A stretch of DNA of 64,000 bases from Iphione sp. A-MEVVRFRX5. Its lineage: Eukaryota. Positions 14,031 through 34,721 of the stretch are shown here, piece by piece. Where the stretch lies: assembly GCA_976226885.1 (NCBI GenBank), contig OZ320319.1:56296001-56360000 (forward strand). The letters run 5' to 3'. The position numbers and the translations under genes were made by a program. Numbering within the stretch: the first letter of the stretch is position 1; the number at the start of each line of letters is the position of its first letter. A model generated the notes under the pieces. The model did no database searches, had not been told where the DNA came from, and saw only the letters and a program-made list of their open reading frames with translations.

Positions 14031-17000
14031 TTAGAGCATGTGGACTTGTTGGTCACTCGCTCTGGTAACCTGTTTGGCCAACAATGGTCCGACTGGGCTG
14101 AAACTTTTAGTTTTTGTGACGATACAGCAAGTATTTACAAAGTTATGGCCATTTTCGTATCAACCCCTTCGCTGCTCGCCAGTGTTTCAGACCCAGGTTT
14201 GGCAGACCTGGGACCTTGGGGTCCCAATTTGCAGAAACTTGTGCCAGGGTAGCAGAGGTTTTAAAAAGGGCAATGTGTTGGAGCATGCTGAGGACAGTGA
14301 GATCCCACCATTGGCTACAGTAGGTGTTGTCACAGGACCTTTGGAGACATGACAAGATGGAACCCTGCACTGTAACACCTTGGAGGAATTATTAGCTGAG
14401 ATCCAAGATCTGTTTGCATATCTGATTTGCAACTGGGTCAGACTCACCTAGTCACTATGAATATTGATACTGGTAGTGCCCCGCCTATAGCCCAGAAACC
14501 CTATCGTAAACCTTTAGTGAAACAGAAAGTGATAGAAGAGAAAATTGACGAAATGTTAAAAACAAAAGGAATTAAACCTAGTAGGAGCCCTTGGGCATCT
14601 CATATAGTGCTAGTTGCTAAGAGGGATGGAACTTAATGGTTTTGTGTGGACTATCATTACCTTAACAATGTTACTACTAAATTCAATTGGCCATTGCCTC
14701 ACATTGATACTTTGACACTTTAGCCAGTTCAATGTCATGCCATTCAGACTTTGTAAAGCTCTGAGTGTGTTTTCCAAACTCGTGACTGAGGTTCCAGAGG
14801 GAATCTGTGGTACTTTTATCATGGCTTATCTGGCTTATCTTGATATGGTCTACAGATGGAGCAACCAATTTGTATCATTTGCAGCTTGTTTTCAACTGAT
14901 GCAGAGCTCCAGGGTTAAAGCTTAAACATAAAAAATGTAATTTCTTCTGCGATAACCTCAAGTACTCGGGCCAAGTGATAACAGCTGATGGAGTAAAACT
15001 GGACATGGCCAAGGTCCAAACTATCCATGACTTGCCACCTCCTCAGATTGTCAAAGATGTGTGGTCTTTCATTGGCATGTGTATGTTTTATCAACAATAC
15101 CTTCCAAGGTTTGCTGAAATGTGGAACCAATCTTGGTGCTAACACAAAAACATGGTAAATTCGCATAGGACAAAGAGCATCAATGTGCTTTTGAGGCACT
15201 AAAAGGGAAATTGATATCTACACTTGTTTTGATATTCCCCCATTTTGATAGACCCTTCCTATTATATACTGATGCCAGTGACACATCTATAGGTGCCGTA
15301 TTAATGCAGGAAGGCAATGACAGAGCAGAACATCTGATACAGTATCTGTAGCACCACTTACCATCCATGCAGCAAAGGTGGCCGATTATCAAGAAAGAGG
15401 CTTATGCTATTGTGAAGGCAATTAACAAATTCAAGCCTTTATGATATGGAAATAAATTTCTTGTGTGCACTGACCATAAACCTCTAAAGTCCTTGTTTAA
15501 AACTGAGATGATGAATACTAAAATGCAACAATGGGCTATGAAGCTATCGGAATATGATTGTACTATAGAGTACTTGAAGGGAAGCAAAAATGTTGTAGTA
15601 GATGCTTTAAGTTGACTGTGGGATGAAGGTGCAGCTGATTAAATGTCCAAGCAGTTAGCAGACAAACTATCATCTGAACAAGAAGCATAGATAGCGATCA
15701 TTCAAGAAGACCTACCTGTTGATCTGCATACAGACAAACATCAAGATGTAATGCATACACAACAAGACCCTATGACTGCTTCCTATGTACATGATCCTGC
15801 CTTTGTGAATATACAGGATTGTTGGTACTATTTCTGACAAGCCTGAACCCAGAATACGAGTAGTAGTCTGACTGGATACGTCCCCGAGTTGTTGAAGCAG
15901 CAACACAATCTTATGGGCCATATAGGGATAGATAAGACATATAATCATATTCACAAATGAATCTACTAGAAGCATCTATATCATGACATAATGCAATATG
16001 TTGGAATGTGTGTGGACTGCAATATGCAAGTCCTGAAATGACATTTGCACCCATTATAGCAAATGAAGTAAATTACATTTCCTTTCCAAAAGGTGGCAGT
16101 AGATACCTGTGGTCCCTACCAAGAGTCAGCAGCAGGGTACAAGTATGTACTGACTCTGGTTGATGTTTAATCAGGTTGGCCAGAGTTTTATCCCTTGAAG
16201 GATAAGTCTGCAAATGCAGTTGGCTGAATTTTTCTGGATGCAACGATACTGCAGCATGGGTGTCCATTAGTACTGTTGTCGGACAATGGCACAGAGTTTG
16301 TCAACAGGGTAGTTCAAGAAATTTGCAAAGAATATGTGATTGCAAGAATTACTACTAGTCCATATCACCCAGTGTCAAACGGCAAGGTTGAGGAAACTCA
16401 CCACGTCTGGAATGACATCTTACCAAAATCAACAAAGGGAGATATGACTTATTGGGAAAAGGTTATCCCAGCAGCATTAATGGCAATACAAATGAGTACC
16501 CACAAGTCCACCAAGTACACGCCGTTCTACTTGATGAATAGCAGATTTCCTATTCTACTGTTAGATACTCTGCTCCAGCCATGCATGAGATACTATGGTG
16601 ACAAACATCATCGCTTGGCTATACAGGCTCAGCACTTGGTGATGACAGTGGTTTGCCAAAATGCTGCTCAAGCCTGAGAGCACATGAAATGGAATCATAA
16701 TAGTAATACAAGAGACGTTCAGTTTAAAGTAGCAGATCGAGTGTACATGCATAACCCCACAAGGCAACAAAAAATGGATGTCCGATGGAAACTGCATTGC
16801 CATATCATACAAACTCCTGTTAATATCTTGAGTAGGGATCAGATAAGTGGCACCACTGAAAAGGTACATAGTGATTGATTGCAGTTGGCTAACCTTGGTT
16901 GGGTATTGCCACTGCCAGAAGATATGCAAAGGCCACAGCAGCACGCTGCTTGGGCAGCAGGTCCTGAACCCCCTAGCGATGGATGGGATGGAGGGGGATC

Positions 17001-17420
17001 ACCATGAGATGATGGTTCAGAGTTCTCATCAGAGGATGAAATTCCTTCAGCCAAATTGTTCAGATGAGAATGGGCTGGTGAGGTACCATCATTACAGCCA
17101 GATGTCAGTTTAGGTGAAGAACCAGATGCCAATAGGGTGGGGTTACCACAAGTTGACCCACCGAGGGATGCACCTGTTGCATCTGAACCTAAGGCACAGC
17201 AGCCAGTTTGGAGGAAGGAGGATATGCCTGTGGCCAGGGCTGCCTCTCCCCCAACAATGTTGGCAGACAGAACTGTTCCATCAGTGCCAGACATAGGAAC
17301 AGAGACCGTGGGGCATGGTCCTGTAGGTCTGAGCCAACGAGACATTAAGGCCAAAGGTATGGATACATTAGAAGGAGAAATGGGAGGTGCCTCTCTCATA
17401 ACTCAGGTGGAAGAGCCATG
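14030..17420 (+). mobile_element. Gypsy-A: decayed Ty3/Gypsy pol (RT, RNase H, HHCC, integrase, long C-terminal tail); gag and 5' LTR missing
   Basis: IDTGSAPPIAQKPYR, SPWASHIVLVAKRDG, LYTDASDTSIGAVL, TDHKPL, HNLMGHIG...CVDC, SDNGTEF, TTSPYHPVSNGKVE, TPFYLM; numerous stops and frameshifts. Confidence 0.92.
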
Positions 17421-17752
17421 AATCAAGGTTTTGTGCAAAGCAGAAACTGAGTTGAGTGACAGAGCAAAGAGGTATTTACATAGACAGGAAAAGAGAGCAC
17501 AGGTAGAACCCTTAGAGATATTAGGAGAAACTCAATGAAATGTTAGGGAAACTCAATGAATTCTGAGTAGGGTAACAAAATCAATCAAGGGATTGATAAA
17601 GGTCATTGAAGACATGGCTTCTAGGCAAAAAAGGTATTACAAGGAGTAGTAGATGTATTACAAATGATAACCAAATTTGAACCTAGTAATTCAAATTCCT
17701 TCAAAACTTCATCATATTCTACATCAGATGAGTTGAATTCTGAGGACTGATC

Positions 17753-17807
17753 CTAACCTCTCAATTGTTGCAGATAACCATAACCAAGATGTGGCAAACA
17801 GTGGTTA
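17753..17807 (+). pseudogene. env: Gypsy-A env part 1: splice acceptor, start codon and first signal-peptide codons
   Basis: CTAAC branch site (17753-17757), ttgttgcag| acceptor (17773) and CAAGATGT start (17789). ATG TGG CAA ACA GTG GTT A joins in frame to 19347 once PLE-A is removed. Confidence 0.75.
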
Positions 17808-17831
17808 GCCCCCTCATATGCCAACATATTC

Positions 17832-18998
17832 ATGGGAAACGTCGAAGAACAGTACATCTACACTCAGCCGCTACAGCCTAACCTGTACGTACGCTACATT
17901 GATGACAAATTTATGATATGGCCACACGGAAGAAGCACACTAGACACCTTTATAGAAAGAATACAACACAGTGTAGACACAATATCCTTCACAGAAAAAA
18001 TAAGTGCACACCAGGTGGAATTCCTAGATACCATAATCAGAAGGGACACCGCAGGCACTCTAAAAACCACTCTACATACCAAGGACACCGACACCAACAG
18101 TATCCTGCATTACCATTCAGCACATCCCAAAAATATGAAGGACAACATACCGTACAGTCAATTCCTTAGAATCCGAAGAATATGCAGTGATGATATAGAT
18201 TTTGTAACACACAGCCTAATGAAGGCAAGATCGATGTATGAAAGAAAATACCCCTTAAATATACTATCGAAAGCATTACACAATGTCTCCAAACAACCTC
18301 GTGAGGGAACCACCGGGGGTATTGAAAAACCACCACTCGCACCTGTGAATATATTCATCACCACATTCCACCCTGAGAATAAAGAAACAGAAAACATGAT
18401 AAGAAAGAATTGGCCGATCCTCCAAAGATCACAGACCACAAAAACCATCAGTAACAACAAACTTTTGATAGCATACAGAAGACCCCGCAACTTAAAGGAC
18501 ACTTTAGTAAGAGCACGATATCTAGATTACTCTAAGGAGAATTGCCCCCATAAAGTCAACAAAAACCTCTGCAGCGGTATAAACTGTAAATATTGCAGAC
18601 TCCTCAATAGGGGGCAACCCATTATTCACAATACAAACCAGAGATCATACCCAACCAAGAGGAATATCACATGCAACAGCAGCAACACAATATACGCCTT
18701 ACAATGCAAAACATGTGGGATGACATATGTAGGACAAACCAAAAGGAAAATTAAGGAACGCCTACGAGAACACATCTATGACATAACGAAGCGACCACAA
18801 AAAAACTTTATAACAGAACATTTTAATAAGCATTCCTGGAATACCAACCTGACAGTTAGCATATTAGAGTTTATCCACCTACCTCCCCAGAGCAACGATT
18901 CAAAGAAACTAAGAACTAAGATGGAAAATAGATGGATTCACCGCCTTAAGACTATCGCACCAAATGGGATGAACATCATGGATGGAGAATTCACCTAG
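17832..18998 (+). CDS. PLE-A truncated RT + Cys-rich linker + GIY-YIG endonuclease (388 aa, open)
   Basis: YVRYIDD, EFLD, NIPYSQFLRIRRICS, AYRRPRNLKDTLV, CSGINCKYC, IYALQCKTCGMTYVGQT...RLREH, ENRWIHRLKTIAPNGMN. Confidence 0.93.
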   Translation: MGNVEEQYIYTQPLQPNLYVRYIDDKFMIWPHGRSTLDTFIERIQHSVDTISFTEKISAHQVEFLDTIIRRDTAGTLKTTLHTKDTDTNSILHYHSAHPKNMKDNIPYSQFLRIRRICSDDIDFVTHSLMKARSMYERKYPLNILSKALHNVSKQPREGTTGGIEKPPLAPVNIFITTFHPENKETENMIRKNWPILQRSQTTKTISNNKLLIAYRRPRNLKDTLVRARYLDYSKENCPHKVNKNLCSGINCKYCRLLNRGQPIIHNTNQRSYPTKRNITCNSSNTIYALQCKTCGMTYVGQTKRKIKERLREHIYDITKRPQKNFITEHFNKHSWNTNLTVSILEFIHLPPQSNDSKKLRTKMENRWIHRLKTIAPNGMNIMDGEFT

Positions 18999-19132
18999 GA
19001 CTAGCCTCGTCATAAAAAAACCTGCATAAACACACAGGTTTTCAATTTTTTACCCTCACAATGGGAATATACCACTCCTAGTGTGTAAAATTCATCCAAT
19101 TAATATTTTTACATTAGATTAAATTCGAACAT

Positions 19133-19175
19133 TATGTGCCTGATGAGACATTGTCGAAACCGTGTGATACATAGT
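19133..19175 (+). ncRNA. Hammerhead ribozyme motif in PLE-A 3' tail
   Basis: CTGATGA (19140-19146), GAC-ATT-GTC, GAAAC (19156-19160). Stem I TATGTGC/ATACATA is imperfect and the cleavage triplet reads GTG (degenerate). Confidence 0.7.
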
Positions 19176-19346
19176 GGTAAACTATTTTAGCTTTCCTTGG
19201 AGGAAAAGGCATTGTGACACCTGTCGCCAATGGCAACAACCCAAACAAGTTTAAAAGGAAGCAGAGACAGAATGCTGGCCACTCACTCGGTAGCACTCCA
19301 AGAGTAAGGACTATTGCATACGTCTTATACATATAAACAGTGGTTA

Positions 19347-20884
19347 TTACCCTGTTCATCCGATGTTGGGTGTTGGTTGTGGGAGGACCCTTTGACAATG
19401 TTATCTTCCATAAGACAATGGAAGTACCAGCAGGACTATCTAGTTGGGAAATCGATTTGGTATCCCACTCTGCCATATATAAACAAGCCTTGGATCAGCT
19501 AACTGTTGACTTAGTAAAATTACAAGGAAAAATGGATACTGCTGCTGAAATCCCACCATTATGGAAAGAATGACCATCTGTCTATGCTAGAGAGTTGGCA
19601 ACTACTCTGTCTAATCACACACTTGTGTTGTGGCAATAAATCTTTTGAGCATATGAGAGAGTGGATCAGTTTGGGGGCTTAGGTACTGCTGTAGAGCTAA
19701 GACCTGTTTGGACAAATTTCCATACATCCCAAACGTGGGCACCTGCAACTATTGTGGGCTTTATCGTAGTCATTTTAGCTGCTCCTGTAGCTCGGGCAAT
19801 GTTTTTAAAGCTAGGCACATTAAAGGGACAGGTACATGAACTACATCAAACCCAAGAAATGGTAAAACTGATTGAGGATATGGTGACAATTCTGAATCAG
19901 ACTGGACAGAAGATTCAAGCAAATCATGTTTCAATAAATCAGATGATTGCAATCATTGAGCAAGTAGAAAACAATTTGTGGGCTGGCATCAGGTATAATG
20001 GACATGAATTTTTTATGGCCTACACTTTTATTGATTTTGAGTGGATGGTTGGAACCTTTGGGGAACAGTTGTATGTGGTTGAAGATGCAATTGCTAGGTA
20101 AGAAATAAAAGTGGCTCACCTCATGGCTGGAAGGTTAACACCAGAAATACTACCTGCGAATGAATTGAAGTTGGTGTTGGCCCACATCCAACACAACTTG
20201 CCGACACATATGTCATTACTGTTCCCTTTAGAAAATGTTTACGAGTACTATACCACTATTCAAGCTACTACTGTACTGACAGGAGATTCATTGGTAGTTA
20301 CCATAAAGATACCATTAATAGACCCCTGGGCCAAATTGATGCTGTATGAAGTAATCAATATTCCAGTAGCTGCAAGAGATTTGTCTACTGTTGTCTGATA
20401 TCATCTAGAGTTTCCATATTTTGGAATAACTGCTGATGGTAAAAGGTATGCTCAAGAAATGGGAGAGTATTTGGTCAGATGGAGAGACATCTATGCTAAG
20501 AATTGCATCCTAACCTCACCCTTGCATGAAATCAAGCAACATCAGTACTGTGTCATGGCTTTGTCTTGTGCTGAAGTAAAAAAGGTTGAGACTTTATGTA
20601 AACAGGAAACAGTCATGGACAAACACCTGCCGATTGCTCGCTATGTTGAGCAGGAAAAATGGGGTGTGTCCACTCGAGGTGATCTTAGCTTTCGTGCTGA
20701 CTGTCAGAATGGAACACAGCCAAAGGCACATGCACACTTTCCTTTCTCTATGATTAAGCTAGGTGATGGGTGTATGGCATTGTCACTATCACTCCCTACT
20801 TATTATCATAAGCATATGGAATACAAAGTCCATAAACCACCGTTAGAGACAGTTTGGATATTCATGAACTAGAGATATGGAAGA
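19347..20884 (+). pseudogene. env: Gypsy-A env part 2: class I fusion (baculovirus F / errantivirus env-like) ectodomain
   Basis: Signal peptide VVITLFIRCWVLVVGG, NVIFHK...SWEIDL, hydrophobic ATIVGFIVVILAAPVARAMF followed by heptad repeats, AGRLTPEILPANEL...LLFP...YEYY...IKIPL...LYEVINIP, and Cys-rich CILTSP...CVMAL. Several in-frame stops. Confidence 0.82.
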
Positions 20885-21273
20885 CTTTTTTTTTGTTACT
20901 TCAGTTGCACATGCTCCAAAGTTTAAGAACCTCACACATAAGGAATTTGCAGCCATAAAAAGTCTGAAAAAGGTACAGATATTTTTTTAAGGGGGTAAGA
21001 TGGTAATCCTGAATAGAGATGACTACATAGCCAAGGGCGAAAAACAACTGAACAACACCAAGTTCTATCACAACATGGATAGGGACCTTAGTACAGAGCA
21101 TGTTGAAATTATCAATAGGTTCCTCAGAGCACTCAATACCAGAGAGACTACTCCCCAAACTCCTAACAAAAGAACCAAGGACAGCAGAATTCTACCTTTT
21201 GCCCAAGATACATAAAGGCACAATGCCACCACCAGGGAGGCTGATAGGGTCAGCTAACAACTGCTCAACAGAG

Positions 21274-21730
21274 AACTAGTTGAAAAGATGACTGACACCA
21301 AATTCCAACAACAGGGTGACTTTAATCAACTTTTAACCATGTACAACTTGTGCGAGCTTTCGGCCCTCTTACGGGCCTTCGTCAGGCAGTTGTGGTTGGA
21401 TACCATTGGAGAGACCTCCTTTTATATCCTTTGGTTACTAAGTGCAATGTGTATAGTGATGGAATGTCTCATAGCCAATCAGAATAAAGTTGTTGAAAAA
21501 TGTTCTTGGATACTTAAAAGTCTTTGAAGTTCTTGGATACATATGGTATGTCAGCAACATTAAAATGTTCTTTAATAAGAAAATCGATTGAAACGTGCTA
21601 ATGATTAAAGGTTAACAAGAAAAAGCATAAATATCAGCTAATAAAATATTCTTGGATCACAGGTGAGTAGTATCACAGCGGTATATGCCAAGAAAAGCGA
21701 GAAAAAGTCCTGGATAATTAATCAGTTCAA
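21274..21730 (-). repeat. PLE-C 3' pseudo-LTR (~457 bp)
   Basis: Constant 4683-bp offset to 25957-26413 (no indels); about seven substitutions by eye, all transitions. Confidence 0.95.
21343..21393 (-). ncRNA. Type I hammerhead ribozyme with intact core (PLE-C 3' repeat)
   Basis: ACAACTGC-CTGACGA-A-GGCCC-GTAAGA-GGGCC-GAAA-GCTC-GCA(CAA)GTTGT: bulged stem I, 5-bp stem II, palindromic AGCU stem III, CUC cleavage triplet. Confidence 0.88.
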
Positions 21731-21830
21731 AAACACATCAGAGCCAGTCTGTCCTCTCTGCAGCTTGGATATATATGTAGATGAATAAGTTAATAAATAA
21801 GAATCACAGTTGGTAATTGATCACATAAAA

Positions 21831-22949
21831 TTACTCTGACTCGACGTCTGATGGTATATCACAGTTGGGGGCATATCTGAACTTCAACATCAAGAACATC
21901 TTGATGTCCTCGAACAGTTCTTGGTTGAAATGTTTCACCATTAAAAGGAAACTCACCAGGGCCTCTGCTGTTAGTCCATACAGGACATCGTGTCCACAGG
22001 ATGTTGTCAGTGCAGAGGCCCTGGGGTCACGAGTGTTGGTGGCTGCTTCACTCGTTGATGTGTGTTTGGTCTGGGTTGATTGATCGATCAGGTTGTTGAA
22101 GTTCAGACCATTTGAGAAGTAGCTGACATCCGGTGAGTGTTCGTAGTGTAGTCGTTTCCGACTTTGTTTGGTTGTATGCACAAAGTTCGGATCGTGTCGT
22201 ATCGGGTGCTTGCAGACTGGCCGATGTCGTTCTTGGATTGGGCGGTTGGGTGGTCGCTGGGCAGGTGCTGCTTGTATCACTGGTGGTTGACATGATGGTC
22301 CGGCAACAGCTGGGGGTGGTGGTGGTCCCTGTCGGTGGTCATCCTGCCGGGTGGCGTGGCTGGCTGCATCGGAAACGGGTGGTTGTGCTGTCGGTCCCTG
22401 GTAGCTGTTGTTGACATCTGCTGCTGTGGTGGGGCCATCGCCTGCCCCTTCATCGCGATCGTTGTTGGTGAGTTGTTGTGGGATGAGTTCCTCAATAGAA
22501 TAGTGTTCCTGCTCAGCCGGTTGCTGGAGGAGCCTCTCTAGATGTCGTGCTGCTTGCTCAGTTTCCATGTCGGATTCGTCGTCCGGTTGTTCGTTGTCTA
22601 CGGGAAGTTTTTCAGCGCTCTCGTTGTTGGAGGAGTCAGCATCCACAACGATGGGGTCATTAGATGAGAGTCCTGGTTGTTGATTTTGCCGACGTAGACA
22701 GGGAATCAATGGCAGTAGCAAGTTGAGGGCATCATCGGGGTTGCTGAGGTGTATTTTCTTGATGTGCCTGAGTAGTGCAGAGCGGCAGGAATACTTCTTA
22801 TCGAAGAGATCACATTCGTGATTCTTCAAGGGCTGTTCATGGTCCATCGCGATATGGCGGTTCAGCAACTTGTTTCCCATGCACGGTTTATCACATATAG
22901 AGCATTCAACCAGGACTATCTGGTATGTGTTGTTGTTGGCCGATGCCAT
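21831..22949 (-). CDS. PLE-C cargo ORF: 372 aa, two N-terminal C2H2 fingers, long disordered middle, TQT motif, C-terminal helical segment
   Basis: Finger 1 is C-x2-C-x12-H-x4-H (res 16-37). Finger 2 has the same spacing with its second Cys as Phe (TTC, one base from TGC). The ORF is open, starts 138 nt after the GIY-YIG stop, and has the same C/A-rich strand bias as pol. Confidence 0.85.
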   Translation of the reverse strand: MASANNNTYQIVLVECSICDKPCMGNKLLNRHIAMDHEQPLKNHECDLFDKKYSCRSALLRHIKKIHLSNPDDALNLLLPLIPCLRRQNQQPGLSSNDPIVVDADSSNNESAEKLPVDNEQPDDESDMETEQAARHLERLLQQPAEQEHYSIEELIPQQLTNNDRDEGAGDGPTTAADVNNSYQGPTAQPPVSDAASHATRQDDHRQGPPPPPAVAGPSCQPPVIQAAPAQRPPNRPIQERHRPVCKHPIRHDPNFVHTTKQSRKRLHYEHSPDVSYFSNGLNFNNLIDQSTQTKHTSTSEAATNTRDPRASALTTSCGHDVLYGLTAEALVSFLLMVKHFNQELFEDIKMFLMLKFRYAPNCDIPSDVESE

Positions 22950-23086
22950 ATTATTCAGAAACCATGTGCAGGAAGTAAATAAGAATGACCTAGTTGCTGG
23001 GTTATTGTGTCAACCTTTAGTTCACTCGTGTACGTTCAGTCCGTAGGGTCGCTGGGTGCCGAGTACCTGTATCCACCCCTCCTCAA

Positions 23087-25773
23087 TCAGAGTCGAGCAT
23101 TCAAGTTACGTGGTGCTCTATCTAGGTGAAGAACAGTGACGTCATCAATATGGCAGTTGGAGTTAAAATGTGCAGCAACTGGCTTAACTTCTTGCATGTT
23201 TCTGATGTCAATGAGGTGTTGCAACAGGTGTTGGTGAAGGGAATTGCTAGTTTGACCAACATACTTTTTTGCGCAACAGTTGCAGACGATGCAGTAGATC
23301 AAGTTGGTCGTGCGACACGTTGCTGAGCCGACTGTCTTGAGTTTGCGTGTGTTGGCTTGGTTCCAAATCAAACTTGTCTCTACGATACGTGGGCAAGTGG
23401 AACATCTCGGTTGTTGACATCTGTGCGTGCCTTTCAACGACTCGGTTTTTGGATAACGTGAGTTTGTGAGCAGATCTCATAGGTTTTTAACTCGGCGGTA
23501 TGCCACAATGATTCTATTTTGCAGGAAACTGGCGTTCCCCATCGACTGTTCCAGGATGGTGTATGCTGACTTCATTGTCAATTGGGTCTCTTTCAGACTC
23601 GGTTTGTGGTAGCTTTTGATGTATGGGATTTTCGCCAGTTGCTCAGGTGAGTGTTGTTGGAGCAGTGTTGTACTATCAAGGTGGCGGACTTAACGATAGG
23701 TCTGTAGGAGTAGGTTTGACAGTGCGACATCATTGTTTTGGCAGATGTGTCTAAATTTGACATTTCTGTACAGATAGTGCGGATCCGTATTAGTTGGCTG
23801 TACGGGATGCTTGTCTTTTGATGACTTGGGTGGTAGCTTGTGAAGTGTAGGTACTGATGTGCATCAGTGGGTTTCGTGTAGAGTTTTGTGGCGAGCTTGT
23901 TGCCAATTTTGTAGACAGTCGTGTCAAGGAAGTTTATTTCTTGGGCACTGGATTCATGAGTGAATTTGATGGTTGGATGTACTGTGTTGATAAAGCGGAT
24001 GAAGTGGTCCAGGGTGCTTGGGGGTCCTGGGTGGATCATAAACACATCGTCAATGTACCGCATCCATATCAGTGGTTTACTGGTGGCTGTTCTGAGGATA
24101 TTCTCTTCGATCATGGCCATGAACATGTTGGCATATGTGGGGGCCATGCGTGTCCCCATTGCTGTCCCATGTGTCTGGTGGAAATATCTGCTGTCGAATT
24201 GAAACGCGTTACATCTGAGGATGTCGTACATCATGCGGATGACTACCCATGTGTGTGGGTCCTCCTCTGGTCTCTGTAGTAGGGCCTCTCTGGCAGCCAT
24301 CAGGCCGTTCTTATGGGGTATGTTGGTGTATAACGAGCTGACGTCCACTGTCACAAGTATGTCTGAAGGTTTGACGTTGACCTCTGAGATGCATTGGATG
24401 AAGTGAGTGGTGTCCTTGACGTAGCTGGGTAGAGACTTTACATGGGGTATGAGGAGGCGGTCTACATAGGCGGATATTTGTTCTGTTGGGCAGCCACATG
24501 CCGATACGATCAGTCGTCCCGGAGTGTTGTCCTTATGGATCTTTGGTAGAAAGTAGATGTTCGGTGTGTTGGGGTTCTTCAGGAGTAGGGCATCCTTGGA
24601 CTCAGGTGGAAGGAAACCTTGAGCAACAGTCTGTAATGAAGGTCTTTATCTTGTTCTGGTAGTCAGGGGTTGGGTTGGATTGTAGTTCCTCATAGTGATC
24701 ACGGTTGAGAAGTTGGTGGTATGCTTCTGATTTGTAAGATGCTATATCTTGTACGACAATCGCACCTCCCTTGTCTGCTGGTTTGATGATGATGTTATGG
24801 TTGTCCCATAGTGATTTGATGGCTTGAATTTCACTGGGTGACAGATTCGGTCATGGTTTTCTTAGATGGCATTTCACGGTCGATCTTTCTATTGTGGTTA
24901 AGTAGCAGTCCAGGTGTTGGTCTTTGCCGGGTCTCGGGGTCCAGCCGGATGAAGGTTTTAGGATGCTGAGTGGAGAGTAGCTGGGGGGCTTGTCGTTGTC
25001 TTGGAAAAGATGTTTCAGTCTTATGCGTCGAGCAAACATGTAATAGTCCTGTAGTTCATGTGCTGGGTGGGGGGTGTGGATTGCGGGGACGAATTTGAGG
25101 CCATGTTCTAGTAGTTGTTCTTCAGCTTCAGTGAGGGTATATTGAGAGAGGTTGACTATGAGCAATTTCCGGTCAGTGGGCGTTGGTTGTTGGATTCTTG
25201 TGAACCTTCTTGCTGTTTTGCGCGCTTGTTGTTGAGTTCCAGGACCACAGCCTCCTCAAATTTTGTGAGCAGGTCGTTGAGTGTGTCTTGGTCCGTTGCA
25301 TCTAGGGCTGTCAGATGTTGTTGAAGTAGTTGGTCGTGTTCGTGGGTGAGTGCTGTCCATCTTGAGTGCCAGTAGTGATGTAGTATTTGTGTCAGTTCAC
25401 GAGCAAGATCTGCCGGTGCTGTTTCCCACTTCAGTTGGAACTCAATTGAGATGTCTGGTATCTGTGCTGACAATGTTGGTTGGAGTCCTCGCGGTGTGGT
25501 GTTGTTGTCTAGGTGATTGCAGAGGAAGTCACAGTGATGCTTGGCTGTAATTAGACCTTGCTTCAGCTTCTTTAGGATCTTGAAGGTGATTTGCATGTCC
25601 CTCCTAAGTGGGTGGTTGATGGTGGTTGGTTCATCGTTGTTGGAAGGAGTGACATTGGTCGGGGTTGTTGACTGCGAGCTAGGTCTTGAGCTTGTGCTTG
25701 GTGCTAGCATTTGATCGTTGTTGGGTTGTTTGTGGCCGTTGGTAGGTGGTCATTTCGGTTGTTGTTGATTCAT
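23087..25773 (-). pseudogene. PLE-C pol: N-terminal domain + RT + GIY-YIG (disrupted)
   Basis: HHCDFL...TPRGLQ, IVNLSQYTLT...GLKFVP, KPADKGG, YFLPKIHK...GRLIVS, DVSSLYTNIPH, GTAMGTRMAP, WMRYIDD, IYCIVCNCCAKKYVGQT. At least 3 frameshifts and 2-3 in-frame TGA stops (probable CGA>TGA). Confidence 0.92.
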
Positions 25774-25956
25774 TGCCTCTGGGGTGCCCTCTGGGGTGGC
25801 TCACGCCTTTGTGTCGGTGGATCGTAGGATGCAACAGGTCGTTGAAAACACGGATGTGTGGTTGAGTTGGTTGGTGACTCTGATAACACTGACGGTGGTT
25901 GGGCGTTGATGGAAATTGGGATCCGTTGGGATACTCTCAGTCAGATGGAAGTATAG

Positions 25957-26413
25957 AACTAGTTGAAAAGATGACTGACACCAAATTCCAACAACAGGGT
26001 GACTTTAATCAACTTTTAACCATGTACAACTTGTGCGAGCTTTCGGCCCTCTTACGGGCCTTTGTCAGGCAGTTGTGGTTGGATACCGTTGGAGAGACCT
26101 CCTTTTATACCCTTTGGTTACTAAGCGCAATGTGTATAGTGATGGAATGTCTCATAGCCAATCAGAATAAAGTTGTTGAAAAATGTTCTTGGATACTTAA
26201 AAGTCTTTGAAGTTCTTGGATACATATGGTATGTCAGCAACATTAAAATGTTCTTTAATAAGAAAATCGATTGAAACGTGCTAATGATTAAAGGTTAACA
26301 AGAAAAAGCATAAATATCAGCTAATAAAATGTTCTTGGATCACAGGTGAGTAGTATCACAGCGGTATATGCCAAGAAAAGCGAGAAAAAGTCCCGGATAA
26401 TTAGTCAGTTCAA
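25957..26413 (-). repeat. PLE-C 5' pseudo-LTR with CCAAT box, TATA box and hammerhead
   Basis: agccaatcag at 26156-26165 and minus-strand TATAAAAG at 26102-26109; direct repeat of 21274-21730. Confidence 0.93.
26026..26076 (-). ncRNA. Hammerhead ribozyme copy in PLE-C 5' repeat, core G8 mutated (CTGACAA)
   Basis: Identical to 21343-21393 except plus-strand tttgtcag versus ttcgtcag. Confidence 0.8.
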
Positions 26414-28241
26414 AACAGAGAGAATTTCCACCCTAGTGGACATACTCCTGAGACCGCTAGTCCTGGACATCAGATCCTACCTGAAGGATACAACTGACTT
26501 TCTTAGTAAGATAGACCATTTAGGGACCCTACCTAAAGATTCAATCCTATGCACACTGGATGTCTCATCACTCTACACCAACATCCCACACAAGGGAGGG
26601 ATAGCAGCCATCAAAAGACAGTAAGATGAGCACGTGGACAGGGACGAAACACAGATCACTGCCGACAGCATCTGCCATCTGTTGAGCATGGTGCTGACTA
26701 TGAACAATTTCAGGTTCAAGGGTGAACACTACTTCCAAGTGTCAGGGACCACAATGGGCACACGCATAGTGCTGACATACACTAACCTGTTCATGTCAGA
26801 CTTTGAGGAGACAAATGTATGCCGTACCATTTACAACCAATGGTGTGGTACAGGTATATAGATGACGTATTTGCCAAGTGGAAACCCAGGAATGCCGAAC
26901 ATACGACGTTCCATGAACACCTGAACAACTGTCACCCCAACATCAAGTTCACCCTAGAAGAATTGCCCACAGAAGTGAATTTCCGAGACATGCACTACCG
27001 TCCAACTGACACCAGGCAACAGAGTGATCACACGGGTATACCACAAACCAACAGATGGCTTCAATTACCTCCATTACACCTCAAATCACCTGCACCATTA
27101 CAAGAGAGGGACCTGTATGTCCAAATCTTATGGATATATGCACCACTGAGGAGGACTATATGTCATCAGCCGTAAAACTAGGGAAGGTTTTCGTCAAGAA
27201 AGGCTACCCCCTGGACCTCATCTTAGAAGCCTACACAGGCAGTGAAGAAGGACTGCAATGATTTACTGTGTGCATTGAACTGCAAGAGGGATGGGCAATC
27301 ACTGTCAATACTGGTCACCACATTCCACCCTGCTTTTGATGGCCTCAAAAGGAGTGTGGGACCTCCTCGGCAGATCCTGCGCCATGAGAAAAACACATTC
27401 CAAAGGCTTCAAGTGCAGCCTATGAAGGCCAACAAACCTTTGGGACCTGCTGGTATGTGCAAAACTACCAGAGTTATCACCCAGTCTGGTGAAACAGTGC
27501 ACCGCAAAGAAGTGCACAACCATGTCATGCTGATACTGCCTGAAACTCAACAAATCGGGCAGGATCACAAGCACTCACAGCAGCAGGAGTTATGTCACAA
27601 AGACAAATGTCAGCTGTAAGAGCTCCAATGTGATCTATTGCATGTCATGTACCAGATGTGGCAAGCAATATGTGGGCCAAACCAAAAACAGACTGATGGA
27701 CAGATTCCAGGGGCATTTGGCAATATCAAATGAGGTGCCACTGGGTCTATTATCAGCGAACACTTCAAAAGTGAAATCCACATAGTGGACTTCATACATG
27801 CAGATCCAGAAAGCGTGCATGCGAAACAGCTGTGTGATCTAATTGAACACAATTGGATATACCACTTGTACACTGTGGCACCCATAGGACTAAATGTTAT
27901 GGATGCCACATACAACTAGAGTGTCAAATTCAACCAGGGACCCCACCAGACCTAGCCACGTACCTAAGAATTGATCACTTACCTCTGATGGAAGGCCCCT
28001 GATGGACTAAAGAGGCACTCCAGGGAGTAACAGCTGTAACAGTGTGGGCCAACTGAACATAAAAGAAACCCCCCACTGTTGTTTCAGTCCTCCAGGACTG
28101 CCGTACCCAGACCTCAGTCCCAACCAGGTTGGGCTCTATCCCATAGCACCTACAGTATGCTGCACATTGCCATTATGTAGCAATACCTCCAACCTGCCAA
28201 GATCACCATGCCCAGCTGTCAAACCAAATATGTAAATATTA

Positions 28242-28290
28242 ATGGTGCCTGATGAGACTACATTGTCGAAACCATAAACACTTGTCTTGA
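28242..28290 (+). ncRNA. Hammerhead ribozyme motif in PLE-B 3' tail
   Basis: CTGATGA (28249-28255), GAC-TACATT-GTC, GAAAC (28268-28272), and a GTC at 28284-28286; stems I and III are degenerate. Confidence 0.6.
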
Positions 28291-28519
28291 TACACATATC
28301 AAAACAAATAATTGTCAACCTTAAACAAAATCCATTTTTGTTTTTCAATGACGTCACAATAGGCATGGAACAGTTACCAAAATGATTCATGCTGCTGCTT
28401 CTCCTCTCCCTGACAACTGGATTCCATTTAACTGTCATCAGCTTGAATGACACTATTCAGACACAGTAGCACCAATGCAATACACGTTAGCCATGTCACG
28501 AACATAGAGATATGGAAGA

Positions 28520-28880
28520 TGGAGCTGCCTGATCATTTGACTGTGACTAACCATTCTGGGACCTTGGTCCCTTTATGCAATCTGATGACAACTTGAAACA
28601 ACTTGTGGATACACTTAAAGTTTTAAAGGACTGTACTGATGACAGGAATTAGGGTCCTGCACCTAGTTGGTTGACTATTGTAGTAGTAGTGATAGGAGTC
28701 CTACTCATTGTTTTAACCTATGTGTGTTGCATTTGTAAGAAGGGATGGTATTGTAAATCATCCATTCCCATGGCTACTGTAAATTTACCAATGATCTTAC
28801 CAAGTATGTGGGGAGGAACCCCACCAGAGCATGCTAGAGCATGGGGAGTTTCTTCACCAATCTTAATACTTCCTAGATAA
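28520..28880 (+). pseudogene. env: Gypsy-A env part 3: membrane-proximal helix, transmembrane domain and cytoplasmic tail
   Basis: ELEIWK|MELPDHLTV joins across the PLE-B TSD, followed by NLKQLVDTLKVL and the TM segment WLTIVVVVIGVLLIVLTYVCCICKK. Confidence 0.8.
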
Positions 28881-29029
28881 ACCCTGGGGGTAAGAGTGGA
28901 CAAGAAGGGAAGTAAAATTGAAGTAATTGACCCTGTGGAAATTTTGGAGAATGTTGAAAATGTTAGGTCAACCCGGTTACAACCTAATCTCAATGCCATA
29001 TTGCACATGGCTTTGGGACGTGAATTTTT

Positions 29030-29330
29030 AAAGACTGGTGGCAGGAGAGTAAAGAATTCTTGCTCTAGTCTTGGAAGCATGCTTTGTTTTGTTTTTACTG
29101 TATAATTTTATGCTTATTGGAAACATTGCTGTGATTATGCTGAGTATATCTGCAGATAGTATATTTTGTATAGTTTGTACACAGCTAGATAAGTTAAGTG
29201 TATATGCTATATCACTTACTTAGCCTGTTGTGGCGAATGATTTTCAATTGCCGTCCTGATGTACATATCATGGTTTGTCCTGCTATCTGTTGTTTTATGT
29301 TACTGTAAATTAGTGCTCTTGCGGAGGCAT
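29030..29330 (+). mobile_element. Gypsy-A putative PPT and start of 3' LTR
   Basis: Purine tract GGCAGGAGAG (29040-29049) is followed by an AT-rich U3-like stretch. No partner LTR in the window. Confidence 0.35.
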
Positions 29331-30872
29331 GTGTCCTCAAGCTGATTGGTGTGTGGAAAGGATTTAGGAGCATCTTTCTGTGGAAGGGTTATGCCCTCTT
29401 GTGTAACCTTTCTGCAAAAATGGTCTGCCAACCACCAAAAGAGCCAGAGACCCAAGAAGAAGTAAAGGTCAGTGCATCTTCTGATCTTCTTCCTGTTTTA
29501 CCCATTGCCAACATTGTTGTGGACCTAGGCCCCTTTGGAGCTGGGAGAGTGGTGGCCAGGGTAGACTGCTGGGACAGGTTTATGAGTAACACGTTTGTCA
29601 AGTCGCTCACCAAAAGGAGTCACCTTGGACCTATTAGGTTTCCCAGAGCAAGACCACACCCTCTCCATACTGGAGTTGCATAAGGACTACGGCACCTTCC
29701 ACAGGCTAGTGTCAGGCCTATGGAGGAGGGGGTGGTGGAGAAAGTAACCACATCAGACAGGTCATTGGTATCCACCATTTTCCTGAGGCCAAAGAAGGCC
29801 GGCTCCCGCAGGGTGATCCTGAGCCTTAAGAAATTCAATCAGTGGGTCCCACACAGACATTTTAAGATAGACAACCTGGAGTCATTTCTCTCTCTCATAG
29901 GGAGGGACTTTTATTTCATGTCAGTCGACATAGTCCATGCATATTTCTCATGGTCCGTGACAGAGACAGGGATTTCTTCCAGTTCACACTGGGGGTACAA
30001 AGGTACCACTTCACCTGCTTACCTAATAGACTGGCATCTGCACTGCAGATGTTCACCCAGATGATGCAGGCAGTGTTGGAACATGTCTGCCAGGTGACAG
30101 ATGCCATCATCTCAGCCAACCTGGATGACATCATCATCTGTCACAGGGAGGGGCCCAAGGCACCAGGGTCCTGGTGGACATGCTGCAGGACCTAGGCTTC
30201 CTGATACACCTGGAAAAATAGGTCCTGTAACCAGTCTAATGCATCAAACATCTGGAGTTCATGGTTAACTCATGGTCACTCATGGTCTGGCTCCCACAGG
30301 GCAAGGTGGCAGGTATCAAGCAGGTTTACAGGGACTTCCTGAACAAGGAATCCCCCTCAGTCAGGCAGCTGACCTGCCTGGCTGGCAAACTGCAGGCCAC
30401 CCTTCACACAGTACCCCTGGCCCACCTGTATACCATGAACATTGTCATCAACAAGAACATGGGCCTAGTGCTGCTGGCGAGGACTCTGAGGCAAAGGTCA
30501 CTTTGTAAGAGAGGTCCAGGAGAGACCTGTAGTGGTGGAAACATCATGTGGGCAGAGGTACCAGGGCTATCAAGGACCCCCTCAGTCCAGGTGGACATCT
30601 ATACAGATGCATCCAAGATGGGCTGGGGGATGTATGTGGAAAACACCAGGTGGTCCTACAGCAAGGTCTGGACCAGGCCCAATGCCACACCAATGAACTG
30701 GAACTCTGGGTGGTCAAGTCAGTGCTAATGAAGGTGGAATTCCTCTGCATGGGGAAAATGTCTGGATCCACAAGGACAGCATGACCACACTGCTAATGAT
30801 CAGGGATAAGGGTCAGTCACCACCCTGCAATGACCTGTCTAGAGAGATCCTAACCTTCTTTGAGGGAAGAGG

Positions 30873-31135
30873 AGGAGTCGCTCATAGTAAATGCTCTAAT
30901 ATCGACGCATAACATGTACTGTGACATGCTGGCCCTACCACAGGGCCTACATCCACCGCGGCTCGATCTCCTGGTCAGTGTTTATGACAACAACACGGCT
31001 ACGGCGAGAGTGGAGCTGCTACGTGACTGCGGCATTCATGTGGTGCCAGGCGTGATCAAGTGTTGGACGGATACCCTGGTGACCTTTCTACGTAACTATG
31101 CAGTGTTTGTGAAAGCTACAAAGCATCTGAAGTAG
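30873..31135 (+). pseudogene. LINE ORF1 C-terminal remnant (possibly SGNH esterase block V)
   Basis: An open frame from the 5' junction to the stop includes LLRDCGIHVVPG...W, loosely like the DGxH motif of CR1/L2 ORF1 esterases. Confidence 0.3.
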
Positions 31136-31436
31136 GACTATGCTTGATCACGGAAAAATGGGTATATTACTACAGTCAAAGCGACTGCATCTCAGCAGTG
31201 CTTAAAGTTTTAGTATGAGTTGTGATTTTCCGATCAGTAAGACTGTGACTGTCACCACATGCCATAGATACATTCACAACCAACGTTAACGTTAACCATT
31301 TGATAACTCGCTGATTGGTAAACCTATGAACGTTTTCTTTTTCTTCTCTTTTTCCTGATCAGTTATGCAGAGTTAAAAATCTTTTCTTCTTCATAGGAGT
31401 AATTTTTGTTTTTCTGCCTACAATGAGGTTTTTGAT

Positions 31437-31675: not shown

Positions 31676-31931
31676 GAGTAGAGGCTTTCTAACAAATAAA
31701 GGACGGTTTTTTAGAACGCTTGTGCTAATGTGATACTTCCCCATCTTGTTGTAAAGCGTTATGTAAAAGTGGACCCTGGAGCTTCAATCTTATGAAGTGC
31801 AGGTTCTATAGGTTTTTCGTTATACGAAGTTGTGTCTATCGTCGATCTGATTTCATAAGTGTTCGGTTCAGAGTGATCAGTCTCAAGTACAAGTAAATAA
31901 CCCGACTGTGTATTGAACTGCATTTGGGACT

Positions 31932-34721
31932 ATGGGATGTCTAAAGGTTATGACCTACAATGTGCGCAGTCTGCCTAAGAAGGTGAGGGAACTCGGGACC
32001 TTTATTTCCAGTGAAAATATTGACCTTGCTGTGATTACGGAGACTTGGCTAAACCAGACTCATAGCGACGGTGAACTGCACATTGCGGGGTACTCTATTG
32101 TCAGGCGTGATAGAATTTCTGCCTCGAACAAGCGGGGCGGTGGAGTTCTTATTTACATCAAGGAAGGTATTGACCTAATCTCCACGGAAGACCTCACCCA
32201 GGAAGGCAGTCTCTGTGAAATACTGGGTGTCAAGGTGAAGGTGGGCAAGAGACGCCCACATTACCTGATCGCGGTCTATCGGCCGCCGCATGACAAACTT
32301 GCAGACACACATAAAGCACTCAACGTGGTTATGACAGCTGCTACAAAGACAAAGAGATGCGACCTCACGGTCCTTGGAGACCTCAATTATAACTTCATGG
32401 TTAAAGGAAGGGTTGGTCAATCCATTACAGACTTGTTTTCAGGCTACGGTCTGACTCAGCTGGTAGGCTGCTCAACCATGGTCGACACGGACCATTGTCT
32501 GGACCATGTATGGGTGAGCTACGCTGGCCAACTAAGGGTGTCTGTCGCTGAGTACTTTCTGAGCGACCACCTACCGGTAATCCTGACCATGAAGAAAGGG
32601 GTGGCAAAAGGTACAATGGAAGAAATTAGGATGAGGCAATACCGAGATGTAGACGTCAATAAGATTCACAGCACACTGAATGAGCAGGGCCTACCGGATG
32701 TCGAAAGCGGTCCCGATAAGGCATGGTCCGAATTTGTCGTCAGAACTCGGGCCTTGATTGAGGAAGATGCACCGGAGGTGAGGAGGAAGAAGAGACTCCG
32801 ACCGGGGACAGTCCCCATTGATGATGGTTTGCGTGAACTAATCGCCGACCGGCGCTACTATTATCGAAAATGGAAATCAGTCGGTTGTGAGGATGCCAGA
32901 AGGATTTTTAAGCATCTTAACGCTGAGGTGAGGAAGGGGATGAGACTAGCAACAAAACTACACTGGTCGAGGAAAGTAAAAGAAGCAGGTGGTGACTCGT
33001 GCAAACTTTGGTGTGTGCTAAATGAAGTTCTCGGAAGAACAAGGAAGGAAGAGATACTGCCTAACGACAAAAGCGCTGACGGCGCTTCAGATGGAGAATC
33101 GCTCCCTGATAGGCTAAATGACTACTTCGTCGATGAGGTGAACAGACTAGCTGCAGGGCATCCCGCAACCGGCTGGGTGGCTTCGGGTAGAAGAGACACA
33201 TTTGACCTAGAGGAGCCGACCCCAGCAAGTATCCGACCGTACATCAGCCAACAAAAAGTCTGCAAGGCCTCGGGGGTTGATGGTATACCGACTCATCTCT
33301 TGAAGCCACTACTGCTCTTGAACGCAGACTTTGTGTCCGCACTCTTCTCCAAGATACGGTCTGTAGGACGGTATCCAGACGAATGGAAGGTGGCTCGCGT
33401 AACCCCGATCCACAAGAAGGGGGACCGCAAGGAGCTGGCCAATTATAGGCCAGTTTCCATTTTGCCCCTCCCAGGCAAAATCTTTGAGGGTTGGATGGTG
33501 GCAAGGTTAGTGACCTGCCTGGAGGAGAGACACTTCATTGGCAAGGCCCAACATGGCTTCCGAAGCGGTCAAAGTACTGAGACGGCTGTCGTGTGCCTAG
33601 TTAACAAGCTAAGGGAGGTCATAAACTCCGGAATGTATTGCTGCCTACTCACATTCGATTTAAAAAAGGCATTTGACCTGGTACCATCTGCGGTCGTGCT
33701 GAGAAGACTCCAAGAGGCGGGTGCAGGTAGTAATTTCAGGAAGCTGATTGGAAACTACTTCAACAATCGGATGCAGTTTGTCAGATGTCGGGGAGCGCAG
33801 TCGGGCTTACGGAGGGTGGAACACGGAGTACCGCAAGGCTCTGTGTTCGGCCCAATCGCGTTCTCTCTTGTGGTTGATGAAGTGGTAGGTTGCCTACCAC
33901 GTCACAGCGACCCTATCCTGTACGCCGATGACTTGAGCATCATAGTGCAGGCTCCCGACCTCCTACGCCTGCGTTCGAATGCACAACATACGGTGAATGA
34001 GGTCAGCCACTGGTGCAGAAATGTGGGCCTACTTCTGAGTGAAAAAAAGTGTGGCTACATGTGCCTTGGAAAGGCTGCAGCAGTTCCTTTGGAGCTTAAC
34101 CTGGGCAAGACAGCCCTGGCCAGCACATGCAAGACCTCACTACTAGGGTATGTGCTTGACAACCAGCTCAAGTTCAAAGATCAGATTAAGGTCTTAAAAA
34201 GCACAACATGGAGTGCCGCCTTGAAGCTAGGCAGAGCTAAGATGCTATTGCCGCTTCCACTCCGTGTGCGACTTTTCAAGGCGCTGGTCATGCCACATGT
34301 GGAATATGCATCTGCACTACTCTACTCTTGCACAAAAGGCGACATCTCAAGGCTGCAGGTCCATTTGAACCGCTGCCTGCGTATCGCTGTGCTAAGTAGC
34401 CACCAGATGTCTGTGAGGTCAGTAGCACTTAGGTACGGTATAGGTAGAATCTCGGACATCGTGGATACGAGAGCCGTCATCGCAACCCATCGGCAGGTCC
34501 ACTTGGGACTAATGCCAACAGCTGACAAATCCAAAACCAGGGATGGCTCGAGCTTGAGGGCAAGAATCCCTAAGCCAAAGAGCCGAAAATTCATGTGCAC
34601 CATTCGCTATGGTGCTACGAACACCTGGAATGGCCTTCCGCAAGCCATTAGGCAGGAAGCGACCGTGGGCCCACTGAAGAGGCATCTGCAGGTGCCCAGC
34701 GGGGCAGGAATGGTACACTAG
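31932..34721 (+). CDS. LINE ORF2: AP endonuclease + reverse transcriptase, 929 aa, uninterrupted
   Basis: YNVRSL, ITETWL, GGGVLIY, YRPP, GDLN, LDH, SDHLPV; NYRPVSILP, QHGFR, DLKKAFD, GVPQGSVFGP, YADD; C-terminal WNGLP. Confidence 0.97.
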   Translation: MGCLKVMTYNVRSLPKKVRELGTFISSENIDLAVITETWLNQTHSDGELHIAGYSIVRRDRISASNKRGGGVLIYIKEGIDLISTEDLTQEGSLCEILGVKVKVGKRRPHYLIAVYRPPHDKLADTHKALNVVMTAATKTKRCDLTVLGDLNYNFMVKGRVGQSITDLFSGYGLTQLVGCSTMVDTDHCLDHVWVSYAGQLRVSVAEYFLSDHLPVILTMKKGVAKGTMEEIRMRQYRDVDVNKIHSTLNEQGLPDVESGPDKAWSEFVVRTRALIEEDAPEVRRKKRLRPGTVPIDDGLRELIADRRYYYRKWKSVGCEDARRIFKHLNAEVRKGMRLATKLHWSRKVKEAGGDSCKLWCVLNEVLGRTRKEEILPNDKSADGASDGESLPDRLNDYFVDEVNRLAAGHPATGWVASGRRDTFDLEEPTPASIRPYISQQKVCKASGVDGIPTHLLKPLLLLNADFVSALFSKIRSVGRYPDEWKVARVTPIHKKGDRKELANYRPVSILPLPGKIFEGWMVARLVTCLEERHFIGKAQHGFRSGQSTETAVVCLVNKLREVINSGMYCCLLTFDLKKAFDLVPSAVVLRRLQEAGAGSNFRKLIGNYFNNRMQFVRCRGAQSGLRRVEHGVPQGSVFGPIAFSLVVDEVVGCLPRHSDPILYADDLSIIVQAPDLLRLRSNAQHTVNEVSHWCRNVGLLLSEKKCGYMCLGKAAAVPLELNLGKTALASTCKTSLLGYVLDNQLKFKDQIKVLKSTTWSAALKLGRAKMLLPLPLRVRLFKALVMPHVEYASALLYSCTKGDISRLQVHLNRCLRIAVLSSHQMSVRSVALRYGIGRISDIVDTRAVIATHRQVHLGLMPTADKSKTRDGSSLRARIPKPKSRKFMCTIRYGATNTWNGLPQAIRQEATVGPLKRHLQVPSGAGMVH

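Follow-up and report, generated by a model that had tools for sequence, protein, structure and literature searches.

The stretch of 64,000 nucleotides from Iphione sp. A-MEVVRFRX5 analyzed here (contig OZ320319.1, positions 56,296,001 to 56,360,000; hereafter the window) very probably carries an old, dead copy of an annelid Ty3/gypsy element, which is primed by tRNA-His and encodes an F-type envelope protein (Env), that is, an 'ancient errantivirus'. The probability of this explanation as a whole is put at roughly 85%, while its inferred parts carry lower figures of their own. Intact relatives of the copy, here called family A, are found in the same genome and possess two open reading frames (ORFs) between the primer site and gag, which have been lost from the window copy. 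Judged by the open literature, the new part is this five-gene layout with two leader genes; env itself is one more annelid member of a group described in 2026. The window copy and the Penelope-like elements (PLEs) inserted into it are composed of the following parts:

14260-17750 (+): decayed Ty3/gypsy pol from residue ~205 on, with reverse transcriptase (RT), RNase H, integrase and a long acidic/coiled C-terminal tail (tblastn, intact pol residues 205-1442; rve E 2e-6)
17746-17774 (+): putative branch site, pyrimidine tract and CAG acceptor (TGCAG in 16/17 aligned copies)
17790-17807 (+): env start codon and first six signal-peptide codons, holding copy 1 of a 12-bp duplication (17796-17807)
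17808-19334 (+): PLE-A, 5'-truncated, with an open RT C-terminus plus GIY-YIG (404-aa open frame; GIY-YIG E 3e-6) and a 3' tail with a hammerhead-core motif at 19140-19159
19335-20884 (+): env segment 2, with the remaining signal peptide, F2, degraded cleavage site, fusion peptide, heptad repeat and Cys-rich head; five stops; 74% amino acid identity to intact Env residues 5-509; edges set by copy 2 of the 12-bp and copy 1 of a 15-bp duplication
20885-21274 (+): 5' part of PLE-B, a truncated Penelope-like ORF upstream of the RT core (from translation; edge from the 15-bp duplication)
21275-26413 (-): PLE-C, with 99%-identical terminal direct repeats, RT (RVT_1 E 3e-8) and GIY-YIG, and a hammerhead core at 21358-21385
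26414-28504 (+): 3' part of PLE-B, with decayed RT, GIY-YIG (motifs visible in translation) and a tail with a hammerhead core at 28249-28271
28505-29030 (+): env segment 3, with a membrane-proximal helix, transmembrane helix (~28670-28735), Cys/basic juxtamembrane stretch and tail; stops at 28650 and 28878 (tblastn, residues 516-693)
29031-29416 (+): the element's 3' untranslated remnant, matched by blastn to the downstream stretches of other copies; a motif search shows that polypurine tract and 3' long terminal repeat (LTR) are missing

A tblastn search with an intact Env of 693 aa places residues 5-509 at 19340-20848, 501-524 at 20815-20886, 516-545 at 28495-28584 and 546-693 at 28581-29027. 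The env homology stops near 29027, which amounts to ~690 codons (about 688 of homologous sequence), and the reading frame is interrupted by seven in-frame stops (19571, 19637, 19646, 20099, 20396, 28650 and 28878) and changes near 20815-20850 and 28581-28584. A short out-of-frame stretch is located at ~19715-19745, where the adjacent frame reads PKRG, a remnant of the cleavage motif. In a DNA alignment at 74% identity, 11 of 15 gaps are frame-shifting, which is to be taken as an upper figure. Homology to intact copies extends from 14260 (pol residue 205) to near 29416, and the window pol is 59-82% identical to intact pol from residue 205 on. For the env element, neither LTRs nor a primer site, polypurine tract, gag or protease were found within the 64-kb window. 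None of the five env pieces of the window itself matches any Pfam family at E<=0.1; its F identity is taken from the intact relatives. The copy belongs to an older subfamily with a dS of ~1.3-1.6 to an intact copy; CpG sites differ twice as often as other sites between the two (0.47 versus 0.23), and the observed/expected CpG ratio in this comparison is 0.21 versus 0.81. The window copy has lost both ends, its CpG sites have decayed, and it was struck by two PLEs, one of which was later struck by a third.

The three insertions are bounded by target duplications. The 12-bp word at 17796 and 19335 and the 15-bp word at 20870 and 28505 each have exactly two occurrences in the 64 kb, whereas the 8-bp word flanking the inner element (21267 and 26414) occurs five times in the window and is weaker evidence alone. 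Uninterrupted genomic copies align on either side of the two outer insertions and overlap by the duplications only. Taken together, the elements show the hallmarks of PLEs with a C-terminal endonuclease, namely RT followed by GIY-YIG, terminal repeats and a hammerhead motif, as well as 5' truncation and pseudo-LTRs (PMC8557442). A scan of the window for hammerhead-core motifs gave six matches versus 1.9 expected, one of them in each PLE; Rfam called no hammerhead in the window, and predicted folds show the hammerhead partly. The single piece of the 3' part of PLE-B that was scanned had no Pfam match. PLE-C differs from canonical PLEs of this type, which have a single ORF (PMC8557442), by an extra ORF downstream of the endonuclease (21831-22949, minus strand, ~372 aa from the ATG), with weak C2H2-like fingers (zf-C2H2), a middle part that is disordered and a C-terminal helix that is conserved. 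It has 49 genome matches, many of which lie in open frames of 300-411 aa, and adjoins GIY-YIG in 4 of 5 other loci. Targeting of env by PLEs was considered in view of the three insertions and is unsupported, as the whole window is repeat-dense; no statistics stand behind this verdict.

The original prediction, which was made from the window sequence, described a complete env of ~640 codons directly after Gypsy pol, inactivated by stops and frameshifts and interrupted by three nested Penelope elements. The nesting is borne out by the target duplications and by the uninterrupted genomic copies spanning both outer sites, and the copy is dead, with seven in-frame stops and at least two frame changes. 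The gene is complete in the sense that all of the intact 693-aa protein is matched, but the element is not, since LTRs, gag and protease are missing. Its position after pol stands as well; its length has to be corrected to about 690 codons, because the premature stop at 28878 had been taken as the gene end (28880).

The assembly comprises 1.18 Gb in 89 contigs. The 15.5-kb contig C89 is a mitochondrion, whose genes are all located on one strand and are well read by the invertebrate code, in the order cox1-N-cox2-D-(atp8)-Y-cox3-Q-nad6-cob ... nad5-F-E-P-T-nad4L-nad4 ... nad1-I-K-nad3-S1-nad2. This order is the annelid pattern, and speaks for the host provided that the contig belongs to it; the tRNA-Gly between Cys and Met and the tRNA-Leu(UAA) between cob and Trp (L042-L043, G000:C89) depart from the common annelid order. 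An echinoderm host, which would contradict a published absence, was rejected, as mitochondrial code and gene order fit annelids. With the window env as query, 1460 candidates were found in the genome, the best 39 other copies of which are 71-77% identical. Exact words of family A occur 937 times (leader word) and 1064 times (acceptor plus ATG) in the genome, reversed controls not at all, and family A has about 1000 copies. As one family A copy measures 11,395 bp, the ~1000 copies account for about 1% of the genome. An uneven spread over the contigs was examined as a subgenome signal and discarded, as the match-free contigs whose size was seen are small.

Intact members of family A, which measure ~11.4 kb, consist of an LTR, the tRNA-His primer site, ORF0 (308 aa), a strong splice-donor word, a 67-aa ORF for a single-pass membrane protein, gag (271 aa, two CCHC), pol, env (693 aa), a polypurine tract and the second LTR. 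All six copies that were read are flanked by 4-bp target duplications and have the polypurine tract, and their primer site lies 8 nt past the LTR; these features are absent from the window copy along with the LTRs. In the intact copies, 12 nt of the primer site are the His_GUG site in a table of PMC13524379. Intact pol contains protease, RT, RNase H and integrase in this order by Pfam, plus a tail of ~290 aa. Among the nine copies fetched with flanks, seven are LTR-flanked; in all seven, env lies 3' of pol and before the 3' LTR, and some of them have pol split by stops or frameshifts. LTR pairs are 99.1-100% identical in 7 of the 9. The ratio dN/dS was determined by the Nei-Gojobori method for the most divergent pairs and is 0.04-0.05 for env, 0.04 for gag, 0.08 for pol and 0.17-0.19 for ORF0. 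For the small ORF, the most divergent pair shows 27.5 synonymous versus 6.5 replacement changes (dN/dS ~0.02-0.04), and the shifted frames, where dN exceeds dS, have no such bias. All five ORFs of family A are thus shown to be under purifying selection.

The pol tail (L027:7080-7950; window 16900-17750) is acidic, then basic and ends in a coiled helix, and a similar terminal helix precedes env in families B and C described below. It has a dN/dS of 0.2 and a dS half that of the pol core (0.25-0.27 versus 0.58), which may point either to an RNA signal that overlaps it or to recombination. In one locus of the old subfamily (L035, G000:C1:96442049-96452048), gag and the larger part of pol have been deleted internally, so that the pol tail is immediately preceded by the 5' half of ORF0.

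Baculo_F is matched by all three intact Env copies tested (E 2e-12 to 2e-14). A search of 1.84 billion representatives with intact Env yielded 1611 relatives at E<=0.001, most of them with 22-31% identity. From the 150 listed, the 114 with lengths of 580-760 aa were combined with the query into a profile of 115 sequences, which matches the solved fusion protein 9w4c/9w4d with an E of 6e-25. An AlphaFold model computed with the homolog alignment (pLDDT 79.7) resembles the F proteins of respiratory syncytial virus, human parainfluenza virus 3 and Newcastle disease virus (E down to 1e-9) as well as baculovirus F, with modest TM-scores of 0.25-0.5; a single-sequence model of the ectodomain (pLDDT 39.8) was not used. 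The motif R-x-K-R, followed by a hydrophobic fusion peptide, is kept in 13 of 19 family A loci, family C has RKKR, and the final Arg (residue 135) is a 90%-invariant column among the 115 homologs. A back-translated probe for the cleavage site had no genome match and was not used. From fold and motif it appears quite probable that Env acts as a furin-activated class I fusogen, which would let particles from somatic cells enter germ cells, as is the case for Drosophila elements.

Several statements of the original prediction can be judged by these data. The F-type env is supported by the Baculo_F matches and by the model, the non-insect host by the annelid-type mitochondrial contig, and env is present between pol and the 3' LTR in the full-length members. 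The furin site, for which no trace had been recognizable, is indeed degraded in the window copy but kept in relatives. The element had further been seen as dead and once potentially infectious; dead is this copy only, and the family is no relic, as its young members have LTRs with 99-100% identity. The inference of an F-env Gypsy element in an annelid was right but known, as such elements, His-primed ones included, are already published (PMC13524379).

It can be argued that the family now spreads within germ cells and that env is a passenger from an infectious ancestor: ~1000 copies can arise in a burst inside cells, drosophilid elements often lose env (PMC13486581), and env is broken in 11 of the 19 loci examined, 8 of which keep a full-length frame. 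These 19 loci were picked for their likeness to the dead window copy, however, and the youngest ones keep a full-length env. The dN/dS of env equals that of gag and is found across subfamilies at a dS of 0.55-0.75. A passenger env is therefore considered improbable, and an env in use during the spread of family A is preferred.

A search with a distant env as query revealed at least two more His-primed F-env Gypsy families, B and C, in this genome (L163-L173, G000, several contigs). Family C is 57% identical to family A in pol, 44% in gag and 35% in env, and the pol of family B is 48% identical to that of A. In an RT tree of 70 rows, from which rows with <380 aligned residues were left out, A and C are joined (SH-aLRT 99) with B as their sister (98). 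Among 80 metagenome RT loci, four show env; a hydrophobic leader ORF was seen in none of the six metagenome loci inspected, most of which are cut close to gag.

How env is expressed has to be read from the signals around it. In family A, the donor word lies 46 bases past the ORF0 stop and is the sole G|GTRAG in the 1.3-kb leader of both copies examined; an invariant block follows directly 3' of it. At the other end, the acceptor CAG precedes the env ATG by 14 nt, and a branch-like word overlaps the pol stop in intact copies, 37 nt before the ATG. The original prediction proposed a spliced env; the acceptor-like sequence is present, and donor and acceptor words are conserved in family A, while splicing itself is a deduction. 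These words tip the balance slightly towards env being read from a subgenomic RNA that would join the post-ORF0 donor to the pre-env acceptor, and the conserved block 3' of the donor would mark unspliced RNA for packaging. Alternatively, env could be translated from unspliced RNA by stop-restart or leaky scanning after pol; the donor would then serve another message and the acceptor-like word would partly be a by-product of the pol stop, with which the branch-like word of family A overlaps. This possibility is taken from family C, where only 3-5 nt separate the pol stop from the env ATG and a pyrimidine tract is lacking at this place; moreover, a spliced RNA from the post-ORF0 donor would still hold a 308-codon ORF before env. 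It is rather unlikely, since pol itself is produced at low yield, so that restart would give little Env, and since the CAG is kept in 16/17 copies beyond the coding constraint of the conserved start. The leader donor, unique in both copies, and the env-F genes of Drosophila, which are typically spliced (PMC12992720), also speak for the subgenomic RNA. Leaky scanning through ORF0 was tested by ATG depletion and is unsupported, as depletion is significant in only one of four leaders (P 0.003, 0.15, 0.42 and 0.49).

ORF0 of family A encodes a protein with an Arg-rich N-terminal stretch of 120 residues, a Pro/Thr-rich disordered middle and an acidic-hydrophobic C-terminal motif. It has no Pfam match, no usable Atlas match and a single database relative, which is 59% identical and conserved at both ends; a remnant (46%) is found in the old subfamily, too. 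All 150 scored matches of ORF0 and the small ORF are 100% identical over the query. With composition as the guide, the chances are about even that ORF0 encodes a nuclear or RNA-binding regulator. The small ORF stops 15 nt upstream of gag and is intact in 37 of 41 loci; only one short ORF of like hydrophobicity is found in 128 kb of window sequence. Its 67-aa product starts with a di-cysteine motif, has a second, juxtamembrane cysteine pair and one helix (residues 14-32, hydropathy 2.8), which is preceded by 13 residues, with Val at residue 2. Behind the helix follow one Arg and then acidic residues, a Tyr close behind the helix, an N-x-T sequon in 36 of 37 intact copies and an aromatic C-terminus. 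No relatives were found for it: Atlas scores of 0.75-0.77 are below use and the Pfam hit KleE (E 0.07) is below the cut-off. It is tentatively viewed, at a little under even odds, as a palmitoylated membrane accessory, probably with its C-terminus outside, which may aid Env trafficking, budding or membrane permeability. The SH protein of pneumoviruses has ~65 aa, one helix near the N-terminus and a C-terminal glycosylation site, and is encoded beside the F protein. The small protein would act like SH or other viroporin-like accessories; the likeness is an analogy only, with no sequence or structure evidence of kinship.

Family C has a comparable leader. It contains a 235-aa ORF, followed after 91-93 nt by the donor word in all four loci examined, and the ORF has at least 180 aa in 5 of 6 loci. 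A second, hydrophobic and cysteine-containing ORF of 51-52 aa stops 16 nt before gag in 6/6 loci and has Glu at residue 2. Both accessory ORFs are under purifying selection (dN/dS 0.17-0.19 and 0.28-0.34). In family B, the leaders are 549-777 nt long, and the four loci with a primer site have no ORF above 42 aa. From synteny, we infer a common origin of the accessory genes of A and C.

A different reading of the leader genes comes from the MDG1-group elements (412, mdg1, Stalker), in which gag is preceded by sORF1, whose product is nuclear, and by sORF2 for a transmembrane protein; these elements move from cell to cell without env (PMC11952523). ORF0 could accordingly correspond to sORF1, and the small ORF could encode a cell-cell fusogen of the sORF2/FAST kind, which would give the element two cell-to-cell routes, Env particles and direct transfer. 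The order of genes matches, including a second ORF for a single-pass membrane protein of ~70 aa, the length of 67 aa falls into the range of 63-107 aa, the Tyr near the helix end is present, and the filter used in PMC11952523 left out palmitoylated variants, which is relevant to a protein with a di-cysteine start. However, sORF2 is myristoylated and has a polybasic tail, whereas the small protein has no N-terminal Gly myristoylation motif (Val in A and Glu in C at residue 2), no polybasic patch past the helix and 13 instead of about 30 residues before it. Its sequon past the helix suggests the opposite topology, the protein of family C likewise lacks these marks, and next to an Env that is intact and strongly conserved, a second fusogen is superfluous. 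MDG1-group elements are furthermore unspliced and devoid of env, ORF0 is three times as long as sORF1, and no sequence link between the ORFs of family A and of the MDG1 group was found. In 249 drosophilids, sORF2 and env never occur together (PMC13486581). By published criteria applied to its sequence, the small protein is a short pre-gag ORF product with one transmembrane helix and not a member of sORF2/FAST, and a fusogenic role for it is improbable. The same low probability applies to an annelid 'complex' errantivirus lineage that would combine a class I F envelope with a palmitoylated sORF2/FAST-like fusogen and a nuclear regulator. If true, this element would be the first to unite both routes of transfer from soma to germline, which exclude each other in flies. 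It would also be a candidate for the state that gave rise to env-less sORF2 elements, or to which these elements came by convergence.

Several points weigh against the preferred reading of a His-primed, F-env element with accessory membrane and regulatory proteins and a spliced env. Purifying selection attests use during the element's spread, not infectivity. The RT tree is a quick one without named reference elements. The single donor-to-acceptor junction probed had no match among genomic copies, and a second junction probe had two matches, both of them the acceptor sequence with point changes. A clear acceptor is missing beside the env ATG of family C, and a conserved donor is found in only 1 of 4 family B loci. 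ORF0 of A and C show no demonstrable homology (BLASTP E 1.3; hhalign probability 0.9%), their profile comparison yielding an 11-column N-terminal likeness that is not significant; the small proteins of A and C do not align, and no relatives of the family C ORF0 were found. Because informative relatives are lacking, the roles of ORF0 and of the small protein are read from sequence features.

Chary and Hayashi (eLife 2026; PMC13524379) described intact F-env Ty3/gypsy elements across animals, many of them from polychaetes; those primed by tRNA-His occur in polychaetes, molluscs and barnacles. These 'ancient errantiviruses' share with family A the order gag-pol-env, the F fold, furin site and fusion peptide, the multi-copy state and the same 12-nt tRNA-His primer site, which in several of them also lies ~8 nt from the LTR end; their copy numbers are given as one to hundreds, the upper end of which is reached or exceeded by family A with ~1000. 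A link with this clade is suggested by primer site and host phylum. The main text of PMC13524379 does not mention accessory ORFs before gag or splicing, on which its figures, other supplements or repository may bear. A search of the open literature, including that main text and passages of PMC8220671, found no env-bearing Gypsy element for which accessory ORFs in the leader are described. With the errantiviruses of Drosophila (gypsy, ZAM, Idefix), family A shares a baculovirus-F-related env after pol with signal peptide, furin site, fusion peptide, cysteines and transmembrane helix; it differs by its annelid host, the His instead of a Ser, Lys or Leu primer, the CCHC-bearing gag and the extra leader ORFs, and by splicing that is only inferred.

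The remainder of the window is rich in other elements. A solo LTR at 11694-12240 (-) has a 4-bp target duplication; its first 18 nt equal the start of the family A LTR and the remainder is unrelated. It was dismissed as the 5' LTR of the env element, as it lies on the opposite strand and has its own target duplication. An intronless gene of 709 codons at 7162-9291 (+) is BTB-BACK-Kelch-like (BTB E 1e-23) and belongs to the host, possibly as a retrogene. Where the homology to the env family stops, decayed frames begin (29680-31140 and 35630-36040, +), which are RT/RNase H-like and recombinase-like and which we take to resemble a DIRS-type element; none of their three pieces matches Pfam. They are interrupted by a young non-LTR element at 31917-34721 (+) with an open frame of 934 aa for APE endonuclease and RT. 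A decayed Gypsy element at 37300-43900 has an RT 36-45% identical to family A pol and 95-bp repeats at 42902 and 43779, and an internally deleted LTR element at 53440-55413 (+) consists of 98-bp direct repeats (96% alike) around a gag/protease-like frame of 476 aa. Two long hairpin-forming inverted repeats are located at 1933-2045 and 2803-2920, the first of which has hammerhead-like core words on both arms.

Env-bearing Gypsy elements have been treated as simple three-gene elements, while two sister families of this annelid keep two added proteins under selection. Such a five-gene organization is otherwise tied to complex retroviruses or to the env-less MDG1 elements, which suggests that leader genes lie hidden and unannotated in published catalogs restricted to gag, pol and env. 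At ~1% of the genome and with identical LTR pairs, the family would allow expression, splicing and tissue to be read from ordinary RNA data, and family A offers a direct test of the soma-to-germline route for env elements outside insects.

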